A DNA stretch of 64,000 nt from positions 1-64,000 of the IMG/VR virus record IMGVR_UViG_2767802123_000001, one strand, 5' to 3'. The notes under the pieces were generated by a model. It was given only the letters and a program-made list of their open reading frames with translations, was not told where the DNA came from and ran no database searches. The stretch comes from a virus (taxonomy: Duplodnaviria; Caudoviricetes). A program made the translations under genes and the position numbers. Position 1 is the first letter of the stretch; every line of letters starts with the position of its first letter. Below are positions 1 to 61,821 of the stretch, one piece after another.

Positions 1-1
1 A

Positions 2-520
2 GGCTGCTCGGTCGGCCCCGACGAGGAGACCGCGCACCTGGTGCCGGTGCTCGCCCGGCTTAACCGACGCGGCTGGGTCACCACCTGCTCGCAGCCCGGC
101 GAGACCGGCACGGCGTACGACGGACGGCCGTGGGAGCAGCGCGCCGCCGTGGAGGGCTGGATCTCCTGCCGGAACCCGCTCCTCGGCCCGCTCATCCGCC
201 GGGCCCGGGGCGCCGGGCTCATCATCACCGCGTACGGTCCCGGGCGCTCCATCGGGCCGCGTCGCGGCCTCACGGTGACCCGCTGGGGCAACGAGGCACA
301 CACCGGCTTCGGAGGCCGTCCCCGGCGCCTCCAGCTCCGCGCGGAGCTGCCCGGCATCGGCCGTGGGGCCTGGCGGGAGCTGATCCGTCACGGCGTCGCC
401 CTGGCCGTCATCGACCCCGTCTGGGGCCGGGACACACGGCTGTGGCCCCTGCTGGACCGGGTGATCGGCTACCGCGAGCACGAGCCGGCGGCGCCCGCCT
501 GGGCGCGCGTCGACCACTGA
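2..520 (+). CDS. Hypothetical protein, 5'-truncated (possibly DUF6919-like)
   Basis: Frame open to the window edge; motif GWVTTCSQPG...WEQRAAVEG; stop abuts the next RBS box. Confidence 0.6.
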   Translation, partial: GCSVGPDEETAHLVPVLARLNRRGWVTTCSQPGETGTAYDGRPWEQRAAVEGWISCRNPLLGPLIRRARGAGLIITAYGPGRSIGPRRGLTVTRWGNEAHTGFGGRPRRLQLRAELPGIGRGAWRELIRHGVALAVIDPVWGRDTRLWPLLDRVIGYREHEPAAPAWARVDH

Positions 521-4397: not shown

Positions 4398-4892
4398 GTG
4401 GCCGTCGACACCCTGTCACGCCAGGCTCTGCTGGAGGCGAAGCAGGAGGGCGGCTACGCGCCCCGCGTGAAGGTCTGGCCGCCGGAGGGCTACGTGCCGC
4501 CGACGGCCGAGGAGTTTGACACTCTGCGGCAGGCGGCCCGGCGGTACGCCGGGGTGGTCTTCCACCTCACCTACTGGAAGAAGGTGACCGACGACCAGGT
4601 GCTGCGCCGGTACCAGCTCGCCGAGGTGGACGGGCCGGAGGAGCGGGCGGTCTACGCCTACACCCGGGCCCTGCGCGACGAGCTGCGCCGGCGCGGCCTG
4701 GTGCACCGGTCCATCGCCCTCCTGCGGTGCGAGCAGTGCAGCCACGCCACGGAACGCCTGTTCGAGGTGACGCAGGAGACCCACCCCGGGCTGAAGTCCC
4801 CGCGCGGGCCGGTGACGTCCGCCTGGTACTGCGCGCGGTGCTGGAGCGGGGACGACGTCGCCGACGAGGACGAGCTGGAGGACGAGGGATGA
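4398..4892 (+). CDS. Hypothetical protein with CxxC...CxxC motif
   Basis: CEQC...CARC; stop overlaps next ATG. Confidence 0.65.
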   Translation: MAVDTLSRQALLEAKQEGGYAPRVKVWPPEGYVPPTAEEFDTLRQAARRYAGVVFHLTYWKKVTDDQVLRRYQLAEVDGPEERAVYAYTRALRDELRRRGLVHRSIALLRCEQCSHATERLFEVTQETHPGLKSPRGPVTSAWYCARCWSGDDVADEDELEDEG

Positions 4893-5833
4893 CACTGCAC
4901 CTGTTCGCCGGGCCCGGCGGCATGGAGGCCGGAGACGGCAGCGCGTCCATCGGCATCGAATACGACGACGACGCGGTGGCCACTCGTCGCGCGGCCGGGC
5001 TGGCCACGGTTCACGGCGACGTGACCGACTACGGCCCCGCCGACTTCTCCGAGGACGACACGCTCGCCGGTGGGCCGCCGTGCCAGACGTTCACCGTCGC
5101 CGGCCGAGGCGCGGGCCGCCTGCTCCTCGCTCACCTCCAGCAGAAAGCCAAGGCGATGGCCGCCCGTCAGGCCCTGCCGCCGACGCCGCCCGGAACGGAC
5201 GCGCGCTCGCTGCTCGTTCTGGAGCCGCTGCGGTACGTCCTGGCGGCGGCCGACGCTGGGCGCCCGTACCGCGCTGTGGTGTTGGAACAGGTGCCGGGCG
5301 CCCTGCCGGTGTGGCAGACCTACGCGGAGATCCTGCGCGCTGAGGGCTACGCGGCCGTCTGCGGAGTGCTGAACGCCGAGCAGTACGGCGTACCGCAGAC
5401 CCGGCGTCGTGCGGTCCTGCTGGCCCGCAGGGACGGCGCCGTGGCGCTCCCGACCCCGACGCACCAGAAGTGGTCCCGGGGCCGCGTGAGCGGCGACGAG
5501 GGGCTTCCCGCGCCGGTGTCCATGGGTGAGGCGCTGGACCGGCCGGAGCCATTCACCGTGGTGTCCAACTACGGCACCGGCGGGGACCCGCAGAACCGTG
5601 GCCAGCGTGCGAGCACCGAGCCCGCGTTCACGGTCACGGGGAAGATCAACCGTAACCGGGTTGTCGGGCCGGCCGGCGAGGAACTGCCCCGGTTCACCGA
5701 GTCGGAGGCCGGCCGGCTCCAGGGGTTCCCGGCCGACTACCCATGGTCGGGCCGGGGCGTCCCGCAGCAGATCGGCAACGCCTGCCCGACGCAGCTTGCG
5801 GCGGCGCTGTTCCGGGCGGTGCGCTGTGAGTGA
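4889..5833 (+). CDS. DNA (cytosine-5) methyltransferase
   Basis: Motifs LFAGPGG, GPPCQ, EQV, PQTRRR, QQIGNA. Confidence 0.9.
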   Translation: MTLHLFAGPGGMEAGDGSASIGIEYDDDAVATRRAAGLATVHGDVTDYGPADFSEDDTLAGGPPCQTFTVAGRGAGRLLLAHLQQKAKAMAARQALPPTPPGTDARSLLVLEPLRYVLAAADAGRPYRAVVLEQVPGALPVWQTYAEILRAEGYAAVCGVLNAEQYGVPQTRRRAVLLARRDGAVALPTPTHQKWSRGRVSGDEGLPAPVSMGEALDRPEPFTVVSNYGTGGDPQNRGQRASTEPAFTVTGKINRNRVVGPAGEELPRFTESEAGRLQGFPADYPWSGRGVPQQIGNACPTQLAAALFRAVRCE

Positions 5834-45424: not shown

Positions 45425-46510
45425 GTGACGATCATGACGGCGGCAGGGGCCGGCACGATCGCGGCCGACGGGAACGTGGCGCTGCGCACCGTGCTGGGCC
45501 TGCGCGAGAAACTGGGCACGGTCGCTCCGCGCGACCCGAAGAACCGCCGGCTCGGACCGCGCGTCCACCGGCTCGACCTCCTCCACGAGCTGTGCGCGCC
45601 GGAGACGTTCGAGCACGTCGTGGGGTGGCTGAACTCCGAACGGCTCACCAGCAACGGCACCCGGCGCGAGTACGCCGACGACGTCCGCCACTGGGCACGT
45701 GCTGCCCGGGAGCTGGTTGGCACCGAGCCCTTCTACCTCGGGGCGATCACCTCCGATGTGATCCCGGCGTGGCGCGCGTGGACCGGGGACATCGGGCTCG
45801 GGCCACGGCGGGTCAACCGCCTGGCTTCGTCGCTGACTTCGCTCATCGAGTACACCAAGTTCCGCACCCGGCTGGAGATCATCAACCCGATCACCAGGTA
45901 CGACCGGCCGGTGATCGACCCGCACGACGAGACGTCCATGACGCCGATCCTTGAAGTGCCGGAATTCCAGGCCGTGGTGGAGCAGGCGCAGACCCCACGT
46001 CAGGCCCTCGTGCCGGTGCTCATCTACACCCTGGCCGGCCGTGTCTCGGAGTGCTGCGCGGCCGGCATGCACCACATGAAGCCGTCCGGCGGGGAGTGCA
46101 AGCTGGACCTGACCCGCAAGGGCGGCAAGGGCCGCGTGTTCACTCTCCCGCCGAAGCTGTGTGAACTCGGGGCCGTGTGCTGGCAGGGCCGGACCTCCGG
46201 GCCGCTGCTGCTCGATGACGACGACCGGCCGATGGACCGGCACGCGGTGGACCGGCTGTTGAACCGCCTCGGCCGCGCGGCCGGTGTGCTGCCGGGCCGG
46301 GACCTCACTCCGCATGTCCTGCGGGCCAGCAAGCTCACCCACATGTACGACCAGGGTGTGAAGCCCGACGACATCCGCCGGTTCGCCGACCACAGCCAGG
46401 TCGCCACGACCATGCGGTACATCAGGCGCCGGGACGATGAGGCGCTGAAGCGGACACACGCAGCGGCGGCCGTGAAGGTCTACGAGGGTTTGGTCGACCG
46501 GTTCTTGTGA
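45425..46510 (+). CDS. Tyrosine recombinase (Xer/resolvase-like)
   Basis: GRVSE, RKGGK, HVLR, ADH, TTMRY catalytic set. Confidence 0.92.
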   Translation: MTIMTAAGAGTIAADGNVALRTVLGLREKLGTVAPRDPKNRRLGPRVHRLDLLHELCAPETFEHVVGWLNSERLTSNGTRREYADDVRHWARAARELVGTEPFYLGAITSDVIPAWRAWTGDIGLGPRRVNRLASSLTSLIEYTKFRTRLEIINPITRYDRPVIDPHDETSMTPILEVPEFQAVVEQAQTPRQALVPVLIYTLAGRVSECCAAGMHHMKPSGGECKLDLTRKGGKGRVFTLPPKLCELGAVCWQGRTSGPLLLDDDDRPMDRHAVDRLLNRLGRAAGVLPGRDLTPHVLRASKLTHMYDQGVKPDDIRRFADHSQVATTMRYIRRRDDEALKRTHAAAAVKVYEGLVDRFL

Positions 46511-55352: not shown

Positions 55353-56435
55353 TCACAACTCCAGCCACAGCGGGTTATCGAGAGACCAGCGCACGGTGGT
55401 CTCTATGGACTGCTCCAGCGGCACCGGGGGCTTCCAGCCGAGGGAGGCGAGCCGCGCGCCGTCCAGGGCGTAGCGCAGGTCGTGGCCCGGCCGCGAGGCG
55501 TGGAAGGAGATGGGTTCGATGAGGTCGTCCACCCCGGCGGAGTCCATGCCCATCGCGGCGCCGACCAGATGCACTAGCTCGATGTTGTCCACCTCGCGCT
55601 CGCCGACGATGTTGTACCGCTCGGGCCGGGTGAACGCGCCGTCCCGGTACTGCGCCGGGCCCATGGCGATACGTATGTGCTCGCCGCTCAGCGTGGTCAC
55701 GTCGGGCTCGTCTTCGGTGTACCGGCGCGTCAGGAACAGCCAGGCGTCGGCCAGGTTGCGCGCGTGCAGGTAGAACCGGGAGCCCGGGGTTCCGTCGGGC
55801 GCGGTGTGCACCATGATGGACCGGCCCGCCCGCAAACTCTTGATGATCTTCGGCAGAAACTTCTCCCCGTCCTGCATTTCTCCGATCACGTTCATCGTGT
55901 TGGTGAGGACGACCGGCACGCCGTAGGTACGCCAGTAGCTGACGGCGATGGACTCCTGCGCCGCCTTGCTCGCCGAGTACGGGTTCGACGGCACAGCTGG
56001 CTCCCACTCCGTGTGCCGGTGCTCGCCGTAGGCCGGGCCGTACACCTCGTCCGTGGACATCTGGAGGAACAGCCGGGGCTCGATGGCCCGCGCGACCTCC
56101 AGGACGTTCAGCATCAGAGCGACGTTGTTCTGCACGAACGGCACCGGATGGGATATCGAGCGGTCCACGTGCGACTCGCTCGCCACGTTCATGACGACGT
56201 CGCAGCCGCCGAACTGGTGCAGCGTCAGCGGGTCGGCCGGGGACCGCATGTCCCAGTGCACGATGTCCACGCGGTGCGACCAGTCGGTGTCGCACACGGC
56301 CGAGGCGATCCGGGCCGGCAAACCCTTGTGGTGGAAGGAAACCGGGCAGACGATCTCCCAGTCGGTGTGCGTCAGCAGGTGGCGCAGGACGTGGCTGCCG
56401 ACGAACCCCGACGCACCCGTGAGCAGAACGCGCAT
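55353..56435 (-). CDS. dTDP-glucose 4,6-dehydratase-like (RmlB) SDR
   Basis: TGASGFVG, ASESHVDRSI, STDEVYG, PYSASKA, RPGHDLRYALD. Confidence 0.88.
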   Translation of the reverse strand: MRVLLTGASGFVGSHVLRHLLTHTDWEIVCPVSFHHKGLPARIASAVCDTDWSHRVDIVHWDMRSPADPLTLHQFGGCDVVMNVASESHVDRSISHPVPFVQNNVALMLNVLEVARAIEPRLFLQMSTDEVYGPAYGEHRHTEWEPAVPSNPYSASKAAQESIAVSYWRTYGVPVVLTNTMNVIGEMQDGEKFLPKIIKSLRAGRSIMVHTAPDGTPGSRFYLHARNLADAWLFLTRRYTEDEPDVTTLSGEHIRIAMGPAQYRDGAFTRPERYNIVGEREVDNIELVHLVGAAMGMDSAGVDDLIEPISFHASRPGHDLRYALDGARLASLGWKPPVPLEQSIETTVRWSLDNPLWLEL

Positions 56436-56601
56436 GGCCACCCATTTCCTCGGTCCCTGATCCGTGGGCCGGATGGTAGCCAGGGGCGGGGAAATCGCCG
56501 AACACGCAGGAACCGCCCGGTGCGGCGCCGGGCGGTTCCTCAAGCCGAGGCGGTGCGAGCGCACCAGCCGTCCCAGGTGTCGTACCCAGACGGCCGGCCG
56601 G

Positions 56602-56856
56602 TTACTCGGTGGCGAGCTGGTCCTGCATGGCCGCACTGTAGGCGCGCTCGATGTAGAGCACCTCCTGCTCGGTGCCGTTGGCGTAGTCGTTGCGGAGCTG
56701 GTTCAGGGCCGCCTCCAGGTACGGCTGGAACAGCTCGAACGCCTCGCGCCGCCCCGCGTTGTCCGTCCGTACGGTGATGCTCACGGGCAGGTTGTCGCTG
56801 GTGGCGAGCGAGTAGGTGACGCTCGCCGTGGTGAAGCCATCGGTGGGAAGGGGCAC
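56602..56856 (-). CDS. Hypothetical protein
   Basis: AGGAGG RBS before GTG. Confidence 0.6.
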   Translation of the reverse strand: MPLPTDGFTTASVTYSLATSDNLPVSITVRTDNAGRREAFELFQPYLEAALNQLRNDYANGTEQEVLYIERAYSAAMQDQLATE

Positions 56857-57596: not shown

Positions 57597-58367
57597 CTAC
57601 AGTCCGCAGCGCGTGGCGAACGCCCCGACCACGACCCACTGGTGCCAGCGGAACAGGATCTCCGGGTCGTGCCATCCGGCCGCTGTGATCGAGTGAATGA
57701 GCGTGTCCTGCGGGTGCGGTATGAGGACCCCGCGCAGCGCCCGGGACTTGGCCCGGATGCCGTCCGGGGAGATGCCGTGCGAGGCCTTCCAGTCATGCGA
57801 GGAGTCGGTGCTGATCTCATGCCACCGGGAGTCCAGCGGGCGGACCTTCTCCGCGACGACGAGCGCCCCCGTCTCACGGGCAGACATCCGCGCCAGGTGC
57901 AGTGCCCCGACCCGCTCACGTAGCGGCAGGAACTGGAGCGTGAACAGGCACAGCGTCAGGTCCGCGTCCGTGTGCTGGAGCGGCGGTTCCTGAATCGGCG
58001 CGTGCACGTAGTCGATGCGCCGTGCCGGCACCCCGGCCAGATTCTCAGCGGCCCGGTCCAGCATCGGTTTCTCGATGTCGTACAGCACGGCCGACAAGTC
58101 CCGGTGCGCCTGGCGCTGGAGGATGGCGCCTACCGTGGTGCCAGTAGCTGCCCCGAGGTCCGCCACCAGGCCGCCCTGTGGTACGAGCCAGTCCGACAGG
58201 CCCGCCACCAGGTCCTGAATCGCGTCGTAGAACGGAACGGACGCGCGCACGTGGCTGTCGAACGCGTCGACCACGTCCGGGGTGAACGCCCAGGCGCCAG
58301 CGGTGAAGGACTCAGCCACGTCCCGGTACACAGGTGTCTCAGCCGTAGAGTCGTCGGTGTTCGGCAC
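57597..58367 (-). CDS. cmoA: CmoA-like carboxy-S-adenosylmethionine synthase
   Basis: WAF...VRASVPFY, DLGAATG, LFTLQFL, LVVAEK, HDWKASHGIS match the CmoA pattern. Confidence 0.8.
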   Translation of the reverse strand: MPNTDDSTAETPVYRDVAESFTAGAWAFTPDVVDAFDSHVRASVPFYDAIQDLVAGLSDWLVPQGGLVADLGAATGTTVGAILQRQAHRDLSAVLYDIEKPMLDRAAENLAGVPARRIDYVHAPIQEPPLQHTDADLTLCLFTLQFLPLRERVGALHLARMSARETGALVVAEKVRPLDSRWHEISTDSSHDWKASHGISPDGIRAKSRALRGVLIPHPQDTLIHSITAAGWHDPEILFRWHQWVVVGAFATRCGL

Positions 58368-59745
58368 GGTAGTACCTCGCAGGGTCTGGAAGGGTTTCAC
58401 TGATCACGGTCTTGAGGCCCAGGCCGTCCTGGAACGCGACCTTGGCCCGGGTGGTGACGGACTCGGGGAGCCGGCCCCGGTACGCGCGCTGGAGCACAGC
58501 CTTCGGCCGGGCCTTACCGTCCTGAACGGCGTGCCGGGGCAGAGACAGCGCGAGGTCTACGACGTCCGGGTCCAGAAACGGCAGGCGACCCTCCACGCCG
58601 TGAGCCATGAACGCCTTGTTGACACGGGGGAAGTTGCGCCGGGCCTGTGCAGCGATCAGGTCCCGGCGGTAGGCGTACCAGTCGGCTTTCGCCAGCCCGT
58701 GGTAGGCGAACCCGTAGCTGGCCCACAGCTCGTCACTGCCCTCGCCGCTGTACGTGACCTTGAAGCCGTCGGAGCGGATGGCCCGCGCGAGGGCGAGGCA
58801 CGGCCACGCGATCTCGACCTGGGCCTTGTACTCCAGCTCCACCTGCGCGACGACGCGCGAGAGGTCGTCCGCCGTCGGCGGCGGGATGTCGACCTCCACC
58901 AACTTGGCGCCGATCATCTCGGCCGTTTCCCGGGCGCAGCGCAGGTCTCGTGACTTCGGGTCCAGGCGAGCGGTGTAGCAGACCAGGTCCGGGTAATGCC
59001 GCTTCAGCTCCAGCGCGATGGCGGCGGAGTCGATGCCGCCGGACAGCAGGGAGCACACCGGAACATCTGCGATAGCCCGCCGGTCCACGGCCCGCTCCAG
59101 CGCCCCGGCGAGAGCGTCGGCCGCGTTGTCCAGGGTCCAGTCGGCCGGGTGCGCGGTGAGCCGGTGGAAGGCCCGCCGGGAGGTGGCGCCGCTGGTTGCG
59201 TCCGTGCTCCACCACTCCCCTGGGCCGACGTCCATCACGGCCGGGCCGCAGCGACGACCGAGTGCGGTGAACGCCTTCAGCTCCGAGGCGTAGAGCACCG
59301 GCCGGGCCCGGTGGACGTGCAACGGGATCTCCCCGTGCCGGTCACGCGCCGCGTGCAACACGCCAGGCTCCCGGTCGTCCGTCCACACCAGGGCGAACAT
59401 GCCGTCCAGGACGGGCAGCGCGCGAGCAGGGCCGAGGACAGCCAGGGCTGCCGCCACGACCTCCGTGTCGCCGGATGTCTGCCAGGTGCGGCCCGGCTCC
59501 GCACGTTCGACCATTCGCCGCACGGCGCCCGCGTTGAACAGCTCCCCGTTGTAGACGAGCAGCACCGGGCCGTCGCGGTACGGCTGGTCGGACCGTTCCT
59601 GCGGGTCCTGGACCGCCAGCCGAGTGTGCCCGAGGGTGCAGCCGCCGGACTCCGCGACGGCTGACGCGTCCGGGCCCCGGTGTGCGAGAGCGGTAACCGC
59701 CCGGCCGAGGTCGAGATGCCCGGCGGCGGCGACCAGACCGCACAT
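58339..59745 (-). CDS. Asparagine synthetase B-like glutamine amidotransferase
   Basis: MCG N-terminus, HRGPD, YNGE, LLSGGIDS, SGEGSDE, RLPFLD. Confidence 0.9.
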   Translation of the reverse strand: MCGLVAAAGHLDLGRAVTALAHRGPDASAVAESGGCTLGHTRLAVQDPQERSDQPYRDGPVLLVYNGELFNAGAVRRMVERAEPGRTWQTSGDTEVVAAALAVLGPARALPVLDGMFALVWTDDREPGVLHAARDRHGEIPLHVHRARPVLYASELKAFTALGRRCGPAVMDVGPGEWWSTDATSGATSRRAFHRLTAHPADWTLDNAADALAGALERAVDRRAIADVPVCSLLSGGIDSAAIALELKRHYPDLVCYTARLDPKSRDLRCARETAEMIGAKLVEVDIPPPTADDLSRVVAQVELEYKAQVEIAWPCLALARAIRSDGFKVTYSGEGSDELWASYGFAYHGLAKADWYAYRRDLIAAQARRNFPRVNKAFMAHGVEGRLPFLDPDVVDLALSLPRHAVQDGKARPKAVLQRAYRGRLPESVTTRAKVAFQDGLGLKTVISETLPDPARYYRAEHRRLYG

Positions 59746-61088
59746 CAGATCGCCCCTGCCTCACGCAGCGGCACGAGGATCCGGTCCCGCACTGTGGCGG
59801 CGATGTGGGACATCATCACTGGCGGCACGGCCCGGCCGATGCGCTCCCAGCGCTGCGCGTACGTCCCGGTGAGCACGAAGTCGGCCGGGAACCCGCCGAT
59901 AGCGCGCAGCTCCTGAAGCGTCAGCTTCCGGGCCTCGGTCCAGTGTGTCGGACCTGTGAAACCCGGGCCGCCTTGCCCCTGTGCAGCCATCACCGTGTCG
60001 TACGGCCGGTCCGGGTGCTGACGTCGGACGTGAAAGTACCTCTGCGATTTCTCGCCGGGCCGTAGCTTCTCCCAGTCGTCCCCGATGGCGTACCCCTTGA
60101 TGGACAAGGCCTGGCCGGTCTCCGGGTCGTGGGTGACCGGTTCCGCCTCGCCGCGCACTTGGTAGTGGCATGCGCTCGTGGCTGTTCCGCCTACCGTGAT
60201 CGCTGGTGACGGTTTGTCCGTCACGTCACCTGCGCTGAACTGGCCGGACGTGTCGTGGAACACGCGGGGCTCCGCGATGACCCGAGACGGCGGGAAGTTG
60301 CCGTTCCCGGTGCCGGGGTCCGCACCGATGGTCGGGGACGGCTGGTCAGCCGCGCGCATGGACCCGCCGCCGAACCCGCCGTTGTCTCCCTGCGCGAGGA
60401 TCCACGGCAGTGCGTCCCGCACGGTGTACTGGTACGGCAGCGGGCCAGGGTGCACCGGGTCCATGCCGAGGTCTTCGCGCACGCCCACGAAGATGAGCCG
60501 GTTGCGAGACTGCGGGACGCCGAGCCACGAGGCGTCCAGCACCCGGGCGGACACGCGGTACCCGCACGCGCGCAGCCGGGCCAAGATCAGCTTGAAGTAT
60601 CCCTTGGCCGTGCCCCGGACCAGCCCGGCGACATTCTCAGCGACGAACACCCGGGGCTGCGTCTCCTCGATGAGTCGGGCGTACTCAAAGAACAAGTCGT
60701 CCGTACGTTGCTGGGTGTCGCTGTACTTCTTCACCTGGCCCCAGCCGGCCTCACGCTTGCCGGCCGTGGAGAACGAGGCGCACGGCGGTGACCCGTCGAA
60801 CAGGTCGATCTCCCCGACGCCGAGGCCGCACGCGTCCAAGACGTCCTGCCCCTTGACCTCCCGGATGTCCCGGGTGTCCAGCACGGTATGCGGCGCTGCA
60901 TTGGCACGGTAAGTGTCCTGCGCGGCGGGGACGAACTCAGAGGCCCACAGCATTCTGAAGCCGGCCATGCGGTAGCCGAGGGACGACCCGCCGCACCCGC
61001 TGAAAGTCGACACGGCGTTGAAGCCGTTCCACGACAGCGCCCGGATCTCCTCCATGGACGGGACGCGGTACGGGGGCTTGTCGGTCAC
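59745..61088 (-). CDS. C5-cytosine methyltransferase-family enzyme, probable carboxymethyltransferase
   Basis: FSGCGG, SPPC, ENV, PQSRNR; motif X reads RIGRAVPP. Confidence 0.85.
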   Translation of the reverse strand: MTDKPPYRVPSMEEIRALSWNGFNAVSTFSGCGGSSLGYRMAGFRMLWASEFVPAAQDTYRANAAPHTVLDTRDIREVKGQDVLDACGLGVGEIDLFDGSPPCASFSTAGKREAGWGQVKKYSDTQQRTDDLFFEYARLIEETQPRVFVAENVAGLVRGTAKGYFKLILARLRACGYRVSARVLDASWLGVPQSRNRLIFVGVREDLGMDPVHPGPLPYQYTVRDALPWILAQGDNGGFGGGSMRAADQPSPTIGADPGTGNGNFPPSRVIAEPRVFHDTSGQFSAGDVTDKPSPAITVGGTATSACHYQVRGEAEPVTHDPETGQALSIKGYAIGDDWEKLRPGEKSQRYFHVRRQHPDRPYDTVMAAQGQGGPGFTGPTHWTEARKLTLQELRAIGGFPADFVLTGTYAQRWERIGRAVPPVMMSHIAATVRDRILVPLREAGAI

Positions 61089-61699
61089 CGGGACTTCCCC
61101 GACCACTCGTACCCGCACTTGGGGCACCGGTGCTCGGTCTCGATGTCCTCGTCATAGGACGGGAACTCCGTAGGTGGCACCGAGGCGGGGACGGCGGTCG
61201 CGTCGAACTCGGGTGTCTCCGCCTGCTGGCCGAACAGGTCGGCCTCGCTCACCTCGTAGCCTGTGCCCACCAGGTCGTCGTCCAGGGAAGCGAGCAGGGC
61301 CGCCAGGGCCTCGTCGTCGTAGTCGCCGTCGTCGGCCGACTTGTTGTCCACCAGGTTGATGCGCGTGGCGGTGTCGTCGTCGCACTCGATGAGGTGCGCG
61401 AGAGCGGTCGGGTCGTCGGCGTCCACGTTGATGCAGAGCTGGCACGGCCGGTTGTGCGTCAGCTCCCAGTCCTGGCACGCCTCACGGCCGGACTCCTCGT
61501 GCCGCAGCAACGCGAGGTACGTGTGGTTCCCGGCGAGGATCGTCAGCTCCTCGCCCTGCCGGCGCACGGTGAGCGGCTTGTACTGGCCGTTGGCCCGGAG
61601 GCTGTCCAGGATCACGTCCACGTTGCCCCGGCGCGCGTTACCGGGGAACGGGGTGAGATCTTCCAGCGAAACCTGTTCGGTTCCGACGGTCGTGGTCAT
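61085..61699 (-). CDS. ParB/Srx N-terminal-domain protein with C-terminal Zn ribbon
   Basis: LTPFPGNAR...SLRANGQYKPL...ILAGNH; CPKCGYEW. Confidence 0.8.
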   Translation of the reverse strand: MTTTVGTEQVSLEDLTPFPGNARRGNVDVILDSLRANGQYKPLTVRRQGEELTILAGNHTYLALLRHEESGREACQDWELTHNRPCQLCINVDADDPTALAHLIECDDDTATRINLVDNKSADDGDYDDEALAALLASLDDDLVGTGYEVSEADLFGQQAETPEFDATAVPASVPPTEFPSYDEDIETEHRCPKCGYEWSGKSR

Positions 61700-61821
61700 C
61701 GCGGCCCCTTCGCCTGGTCGACGGACGCGGCGATGTTAAGACCGGAGCAGCCCATGATCATTCCGGAGTACGACGAAGCCCCGGGCCGTGAGGCTCCGGG
61801 GCTCGGTGGTTCATCGGGCGG

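Follow-up and report, generated by a model that had tools for sequence, protein, structure and literature searches.

A putative glutamine-using CmoA-CmoX-CmoY-type cytosine hypermodification cassette in an actinobacterial phage genome

Introduction

Phages can disguise their DNA with 5-carboxymethylcytosine (5cxmC) and amides of it, a class of camouflage that has been recognised only recently. The enzymes of this pathway were described by Yang et al. (Nat Commun 2025, December 2025; PMC12783734), with Synechococcus phage S-B43 as the source of the modified DNA. SpCmoA makes carboxy-S-adenosylmethionine (Cx-SAM), and SpCmoX, whose wild type accepts only Cx-SAM, makes 5cxmC at GC sites (PMC12783734). 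E. coli provides Cx-SAM by means of its own CmoA, and the m/z of the deoxynucleoside 5cxmdC is 286.1 (PMC12783734). SpCmoY, a ligase of the AsnB family, then joins glycine to 5cxmC in DNA in an ATP-dependent reaction, and the virion DNA of S-B43 bears the glycine amide (PMC12783734). In the structure 8YF3, R350 of SpCmoX, which replaces N304 of HhaI, contacts the carboxylate of Cx-SAM (PMC12783734). Here we describe a cassette of four overlapping genes at positions 57,597 to 61,699 of a 64,000-nucleotide stretch of tailed-phage DNA (positions 1 to 64,000 of IMG/VR record IMGVR_UViG_2767802123_000001; hereafter the window). Based on homology and gene context, this cassette is probably a post-replicative cytosine hypermodification operon of the CmoA-CmoX-CmoY type, in a glutamine-using form.

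The survey of Yang et al. lists 5,615 CmoX, 4,257 CmoA, 2,251 ligase, and 1,660 ParBc sequences (PMC12783734). ParBc proteins are often adjacent to S-B43-type systems, and no role was assigned to them in that study (PMC12783734). The second-largest ligase cluster carries a glutaminase domain, and its predicted substrate is glutamine-derived ammonia, with A0A7T0Q3R0 as the exemplar; other ligase clusters with different likely amines were also noted (PMC12783734). A0A7T0Q3R0 is gp124 of Streptomyces phage TurkishDelight. In our literature search, carbamoylmethylcytosine was not named in any paper, and no work on CmoX after that of Yang et al. was found.

Like the S-B43 system, the window cassette combines, in one cluster, a Cx-SAM synthase homolog, a cytosine C5-methyltransferase (C5-MTase) homolog with both an SPPC motif and a motif-X Arg, and an AsnB-family ligase. 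The two systems differ, however, in several respects. SpCmoY consists of the ATP-binding domain only and uses glycine, whereas the window ligase has a full glutaminase domain. The gene order is also different, the host of the window phage is a high-GC actinobacterium, and the window transferase has just 39% identity to SpCmoX and a target-recognition region that is longer and unrelated. TurkishDelight (MW291017) gp122-125 encode a ParB-like protein, a methyltransferase (MTase), an amidotransferase, and a further methyltransferase in the same order as in the window and with similar overlaps. The identities are 60% for the CmoX gp123 by tblastn (69% by MAFFT), 75% for the ligase, and 64% for CmoA. 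Unlike the window cassette, that of TurkishDelight lacks a 43-residue insertion in the transferase, lies at the genome end, is preceded by a second ParB-like gene, and has unrelated flanks.

Individual components also have known counterparts. M.MpeI N374K, as it is described in PMC12783734, resembles the window transferase in that a basic residue in place of the motif-X Asn permits the use of Cx-SAM, but it is described there as an engineered single mutant with CG specificity, with Lys instead of Arg, and without a dedicated CmoA or ligase. E. coli AsnB (1CT9) shares with the window ligase its two domains, the N-terminal Cys nucleophile, the R/N-G-E/D residues of the glutamine site, the SGGxDS PP-loop, and the SGEGSDE motif. 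In contrast to AsnB, the window ligase scores below the family cut-offs, lacks about 70 C-terminal residues, and has its genetic links with CmoX and CmoA instead of amino-acid metabolism. The E. coli CmoA/CmoB pathway for the tRNA nucleoside cmo5U (uridine-5-oxyacetic acid) (4GEK, 4IWN; PMC3663124) has in common with the window the CmoA fold and most of the cofactor ligands. The window, however, has no CmoB partner and has Ser in place of Arg199, and the predicted acceptor is a DNA cytosine rather than a tRNA uridine.

Results

The transferase (P0002, 460 amino acids; 59745..61127, minus strand) is a homolog of the CmoX-type DNA cytosine C5-carboxymethyltransferase and has a C5 DNA methylase fold (PF00145 at 1.1e-53). 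A preliminary description of this DNA had pointed to intact motifs I, IV, VI, and VIII accompanied by an unusual motif X, and all of these can be read in the translation: FSGCGG for motif I, GSPPC for motif IV (C116), ENV for motif VI (E164), QSRNR for motif VIII (R208/R210 of QxRxR), and RIGRAVPP for motif X (R432). The closest solved structure is the SpCmoX-Cx-SAM complex (PDB 8YF3, E 6e-60), and ordinary C5-MTase structures match from 1.6e-23 (M.HaeIII). In the HMMER alignment to 8YF3, ERIGRAVPPVMM lies opposite ERVGRMVPPLMM, which places R432 on R350 of SpCmoX, and GSPPC (C116) is aligned with S95-C98 of SpCmoX (SPPC). R432 is invariant among 23 relatives of the transferase, and the SPPC motif, the Glu of ENV, and the arginines of QxRxR are kept in the aligned relatives. 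The same phage encodes an ordinary C5-MTase (4889-5833, plus strand; PF00145 at 7.7e-25), the motif X of which reads QQIGNACP and is thus of the Asn type, as had been noted earlier. Phage DNA may therefore carry 5-methylcytosine (5mC) at one motif and a carboxymethyl-derived base at another.

The association between the motif-X Arg and cmoA, a check that had been named beforehand, was examined in the 80 IMG/VR loci closest to the transferase, scored by tblastn with cmoA counted within 5 kb; this sample is skewed to the CmoX clade by the search patterns and holds few controls. Arg is present at motif X in 78 of the 80 loci, and 77 of these 78 contain a CmoA homolog. The remaining two loci, one with Asn and one with Leu at this position, contain no cmoA. 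The check thus did not refute the proposed reading, and its result is in agreement with the survey of Yang et al. Ligases of the glutaminase type were found in 21 of the 80 loci and those of the SpCmoY type in 14, and the other 45 have none. In every locus carrying a glutaminase-type ligase (21/21), the ligase lies beside CmoX and CmoA.

The gene for the CmoA-like protein, a homolog of the carboxy-SAM synthase (256 amino acids; 57597..58367, minus strand), is the last of the cassette. The protein matches TIGR00740 at 1.1e-25 (90.7 bits) and the E. coli CmoA structures 4GEK/4IWN at 7e-18, while Pfam finds only generic methyltransferase domains in it. The cofactor ligands of E. coli CmoA include Y39, D62, G64, D89, and F137 (PMC3663124), and all five are kept in the window protein. 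It shares its phage CmoA group with the validated SpCmoA. No second CmoA-like gene was found in the host assembly, and only one of 300 other genomes of the host genus has such a gene.

A CmoA-like gene 50% identical to that of the window is also present in Gordonia phage Evaa (OP434461.1, 1-3952; L170). No C5-MTase/CmoX homolog was found anywhere in the 61-kb Evaa genome, and near its CmoA-like gene lies a gene with a methyltransferase annotation that encodes a ParB_N domain fused with a Rossmann-like one. Yang et al. report finding no carboxy-SAM user other than the C5-MTase type (PMC12783734). The ParB_N-Rossmann protein of Evaa may be a carboxy-SAM user outside the C5-MTases.

The ligase (P0003, 468 amino acids; 58339..59745, minus strand), a glutamine-type CmoY-like amide ligase by its domains (Asn_synthase at 7e-45, GATase_6, and GATase_7), is composed of a class II (N-terminal nucleophile, Ntn) glutaminase domain and an AsnB-type PP-loop adenylating domain. 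It matches E. coli AsnB (1CT9) at 4e-40 with 33% identity and retains the catalytic residues, but its scores stay under the two AsnB equivalog cut-offs (249.8 against 267.1 and 231.2 against 499), and it ends about 70 residues short of the AsnB C-terminus. The glutaminase site comprises C2, R42, N66-G67-E68, and D93, and the adenylating domain contains the PP-loop SGGIDS (235-240) and SGEGSDE (333-339). Among 25 members of the ligase family, down to 52% identity, there is no variation at R42, G67, E68, D93, SGG-DS, E335, D338, or E339, and at least 90% keep C2 and N66. The family-wide conservation of the glutaminase residues argues that this domain is used catalytically. The 75% identity to TurkishDelight gp124 (UniRef100_A0A7T0Q3R0) extends over the full length of the protein. 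Glutaminase-type ligases of this family are common in Streptomyces, Nonomuraea, Streptosporangium, and Microbispora genomes, and a Streptosporangium prophage has the same cassette beside an integrase and a terminase. When genome contigs were scanned with the ligase as the single query, one close relative was found, in Streptomyces fuscigenes (70%), the rest being ordinary AsnB genes.

The first gene of the cassette encodes a ParB-like protein (P0001, 204 amino acids; 61085..61699, minus strand). The single protein matches PHROG 723 at 2e-38, and no family was found for it in Pfam or NCBIfam. The alignment of its family (26 members), however, matches the N-domains of ParB/Spo0J/Noc at 4e-12, and PF02195 is found in 20 of the 26. 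The N-terminal domain of P0001 is a divergent ParB domain; an acidic linker and a conserved C-terminal tail follow it. Since the GERR box reads GNHT in P0001, CTPase activity is doubtful. A ParB-like homolog is found ahead of CmoX in 76 of the 80 IMG/VR loci, often with an identical overlap of 43 nucleotides. No ParB-CmoX fusion was among the best 150 matches of a profile search with the ParB-like family; most of the long matches sampled were proteins with ParB_N in tandem, two of which also had a GNAT domain.

The best-conserved part of the ParB-like proteins associated with CmoX is not the ParB domain but the C-terminal stretch FP..DE.IETEH.CPKCGYEWSGK, with one CxxC pair, in which C192, P193, and C195 are invariant in the family alignment. 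P0001 also has a Cys-rich insertion (C75, C86, C89), which is common to its closest relative.

All four open reading frames (ORFs) of the cassette were found on the minus strand at the positions given in the preliminary description, and their overlaps can be read directly from the sequence. The ParB-like gene overlaps the transferase gene by 43 nucleotides, and at the next junction (TGATG) the ligase start has a single base in common with the transferase stop. The longest ORF of the CmoA-like gene (P0004, 267 amino acids; 57597..58400, minus strand) has a second GTG at 58367, with which the overlap with the ligase gene is 29 nucleotides. This GTG is preferred as the start because it is preceded by GCGAGG and because the resulting length of 256 amino acids is also the one called for TurkishDelight and for a close relative from metagenomic data. 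The four genes are translationally coupled, and 31 nucleotides separate the stop of the CmoA-like gene from the start of the next gene. The same four-gene order is found in TurkishDelight, in the Streptosporangium prophage, in a closely related metagenomic phage, and in 21 of the 80 IMG/VR loci, and such recurrence puts the arrangement far beyond chance.

A GC-rich hairpin at 61778-61802 on the minus strand (GCCCCGG, an 11-nucleotide loop, and CCGGGGC, followed by TTCGTCG) occupies part of the gap from 61822, where the upstream ORF stops, to 61699, where the ParB-like gene starts. It may mark the cassette as a unit of its own. A scan for consensus promoters and terminators from 56.5 to 62.4 kb called nothing, this hairpin included.

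Several observations concern CmoX homologs other than that of the window. Many homologs of 800-1000 amino acids (P0127-P0142 and others) contain Hint/intein and LAGLIDADG domains, which suggests that inteins have invaded the CmoX-type transferase repeatedly. Three otherwise well-aligned CmoX genes in IMG/VR have in-frame stops (TAA in L028:509-1714 and in L074:5001-6101, TGA in L077:4998-6107); these could be pseudogenes, sequencing errors, or cases of recoding. Two apparent CmoX-ligase fusion proteins, P0143 and P0144, have low-complexity sequence in place of the C-terminal helix of CmoX, ahead of the MCG start of the ligase, and P0144 has no motif X. Both appear to be frameshift read-throughs and were not used as Rosetta-stone evidence.

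The window covers the initial 64 kb of contig C29 from a 120-contig, 8.2-Mb actinobacterial assembly. C29 is 95,726 bp long, and its ends overlap by exactly 99 bp (window 1-99 = C29 95628-95726), so the assembly yielded a circle of about 95.6 kb, apart from the chromosome. Its genes include those for a portal, a major head protein, a tape measure, and a tyrosine integrase (45425-46510), and C29 is thus a complete tailed-phage genome on its own contig. Such a circle may represent an episome, a prophage that has excised, or co-purified phage. A near-identity DNA search of the phage collection found no match.

Discussion

The pathway that had been proposed in the preliminary description, from a CmoA-like protein through Cx-SAM and 5cxmC to an amide made by the AsnB-like protein, is the best-supported reading of the cassette, as each of its steps matches an enzyme class that has either been validated or been predicted in print (R432 on R350, the SpCmoA group, and A0A7T0Q3R0 at 75% identity). 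By homology to SpCmoA, the CmoA-like enzyme would make carboxy-SAM from S-adenosylmethionine (SAM) and host prephenate. The transferase would then flip the target cytosine, C116 would attack C6, and the carboxymethyl group would be transferred to C5 while R432 holds the carboxylate of the cofactor. The expected product, judged from SpCmoX and its crystal structure, is 5cxmC. Subsequently, the ligase would adenylate this carboxylate, and its N-terminal glutaminase domain would supply glutamine-derived ammonia, giving 5-carbamoylmethylcytosine. The ParB-like protein is a conserved fourth component, possibly for DNA targeting. The modification probably serves to shield phage DNA against nucleases of the host. 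For homologs, the synthesis of Cx-SAM, the carboxymethylation of C5, and the amidation of 5cxmC in DNA at the expense of ATP have been demonstrated, and the window orthologs would be expected to act in the same way. We give about an even chance to the more specific proposal that virion DNA carries 5-carbamoylmethylcytosine and that the ParB-like protein, with its CPKCGYEWSG tail, is a dedicated partner directing the transferase to phage DNA.

Several points weigh against this pathway or limit how far it can be taken. The score of the CmoA-like protein lies below the TIGR00740 cut-off of 193.3 bits. However, the validated SpCmoA (115.6 bits) also fails this cut-off, as does TurkishDelight gp125 (89.5 bits), and thus the cut-off marks cellular CmoA rather than the phage clade. 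The CmoA-like protein also has no Arg at the position of E. coli Arg199. In an alignment of 81 CmoA sequences, anchored on the nearly invariant K198, L202, and G204, K198-R199-S200 of E. coli is aligned with K-S-R of the window protein, which therefore has Ser at this position and Arg at +1 and +4. The preliminary description had read this as a shift of the carboxylate-binding Arg by one residue and had raised it as a caveat. The shift itself was described accurately, but it is probably not a defect, since the validated SpCmoA, with Glu at the 199 position, Lys at +1, and Arg at +4, has a comparable arrangement and also lacks Arg199. Arg199 is kept in just 22 of 80 phage CmoA homologs, and the shift appears to be a trait of the active phage CmoA clade.

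Further points on this side concern the transferase and the ligase. The target-recognition region of the transferase does not align with SpCmoX and contains a Gly-rich insertion of 43 residues relative to TurkishDelight, and the target sequence is therefore not inferable. The ligase also retains the acidic pocket (E335/D338/E339) with which asparagine synthetases hold the amino group of aspartate (PMC6748925). It therefore cannot be argued that the AsnB substrate site has been lost, and the case for DNA as the substrate of the ligase is a genetic one. Finally, no soluble enzyme was obtained from the glutaminase-type ligase cluster (PMC12783734), and 5-carbamoylmethylcytosine is a predicted product for every member of this cluster.

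Glu occupies the 199 position in 45 of the 80 CmoX-associated phage CmoA homologs (K-E-L-S-L-x-G), with no obvious basic residue nearby.

Three rival explanations were considered. If the first two steps hold, the ligase might join an amine other than ammonia, such as an amino acid, a polyamine, or hydroxylamine, and the product would be a substituted amide or a hydroxamate. The use of glycine by SpCmoY and the clusters with other likely amines (PMC12783734) speak for this, as do the retained acidic pocket and the AsnB-family hydroxyamidotransferase 7YLZ among the PDB matches of the ligase. However, the full set of class II glutaminase residues, a signature of enzymes that generate and channel ammonia, is kept throughout the family, whereas SpCmoY-type ligases wholly lack a glutaminase domain, and we consider another amine unlikely. 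Alternatively, the AsnB-like gene could encode an auxiliary asparagine synthetase unrelated to DNA, in which case the DNA modification would stop at 5cxmC. The ligase does share 33% identity and the catalytic residues with E. coli AsnB, and 45 of the 80 CmoX loci do without any ligase. Nevertheless, this explanation seems very improbable in view of the scores below both equivalog cut-offs, the missing C-terminal residues (about 70), the bona fide AsnB that the host already has (contig C1, 496.9 bits, above the cut-off), the position of this ligase type beside CmoX and CmoA in 21 of 21 IMG/VR loci, and the translational coupling of its gene to both neighbours.

A third alternative would be that the transferase is an ordinary SAM-dependent methyltransferase making 5mC and that the CmoA-like protein is a plain methyltransferase. 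It would account for the presence of all the classical C5-MTase motifs and for the generic methyltransferase assignment of the CmoA-like protein by Pfam. The motif-X Arg, however, is the same as in SpCmoX, whose wild type took only Cx-SAM; this Arg is accompanied by cmoA in 77 of 78 loci, and the phage already has a separate MTase of the Asn type. We therefore regard this alternative as the least probable of the three, with hardly any chance of being correct.

It had also been suggested that the AsnB-coupled version in an actinophage might be new. This suggestion did not hold, as such a version has already been described bioinformatically, with a Streptomyces phage as the exemplar (PMC12783734). 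The window thus offers a new example of a known pathway type, with nothing conceptually new beyond the published prediction. It provides a second actinophage ortholog set, 60-75% identical to that of TurkishDelight in three of the four proteins. Furthermore, a circular phage from a cultured-type actinobacterial genome could give direct access to the modified DNA and alternative proteins for expression.

The cassette lies within a long leftward gene block, between replication and packaging genes. It is preceded by a primase-helicase-PolA fusion and followed by a LuxR-like regulator, an Rpf/NlpC enzyme, and a terminase. This position is compatible with expression alongside or just after the replication genes. 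The flanking genes, namely a 213-amino-acid gene, a short-chain dehydrogenase/reductase (SDR) epimerase/dehydratase gene, the LuxR-like gene, and small upstream genes, were considered as parts of the system and rejected, as they are not beside the cassette in the other loci compared. The 213-amino-acid gene also follows cmoA in the closest relative, and its product looks like a small DNA-binding protein. The SDR gene (55353-56636, minus strand) encodes an NAD-dependent epimerase/dehydratase resembling GDP-mannose 4,6-dehydratase (PF01370 at 1.5e-43) and is transcribed in the same direction as the cassette, about 1 kb further downstream. The nearest related phage (L167) has no such gene at this site, which suggests that the gene was inserted as cargo.

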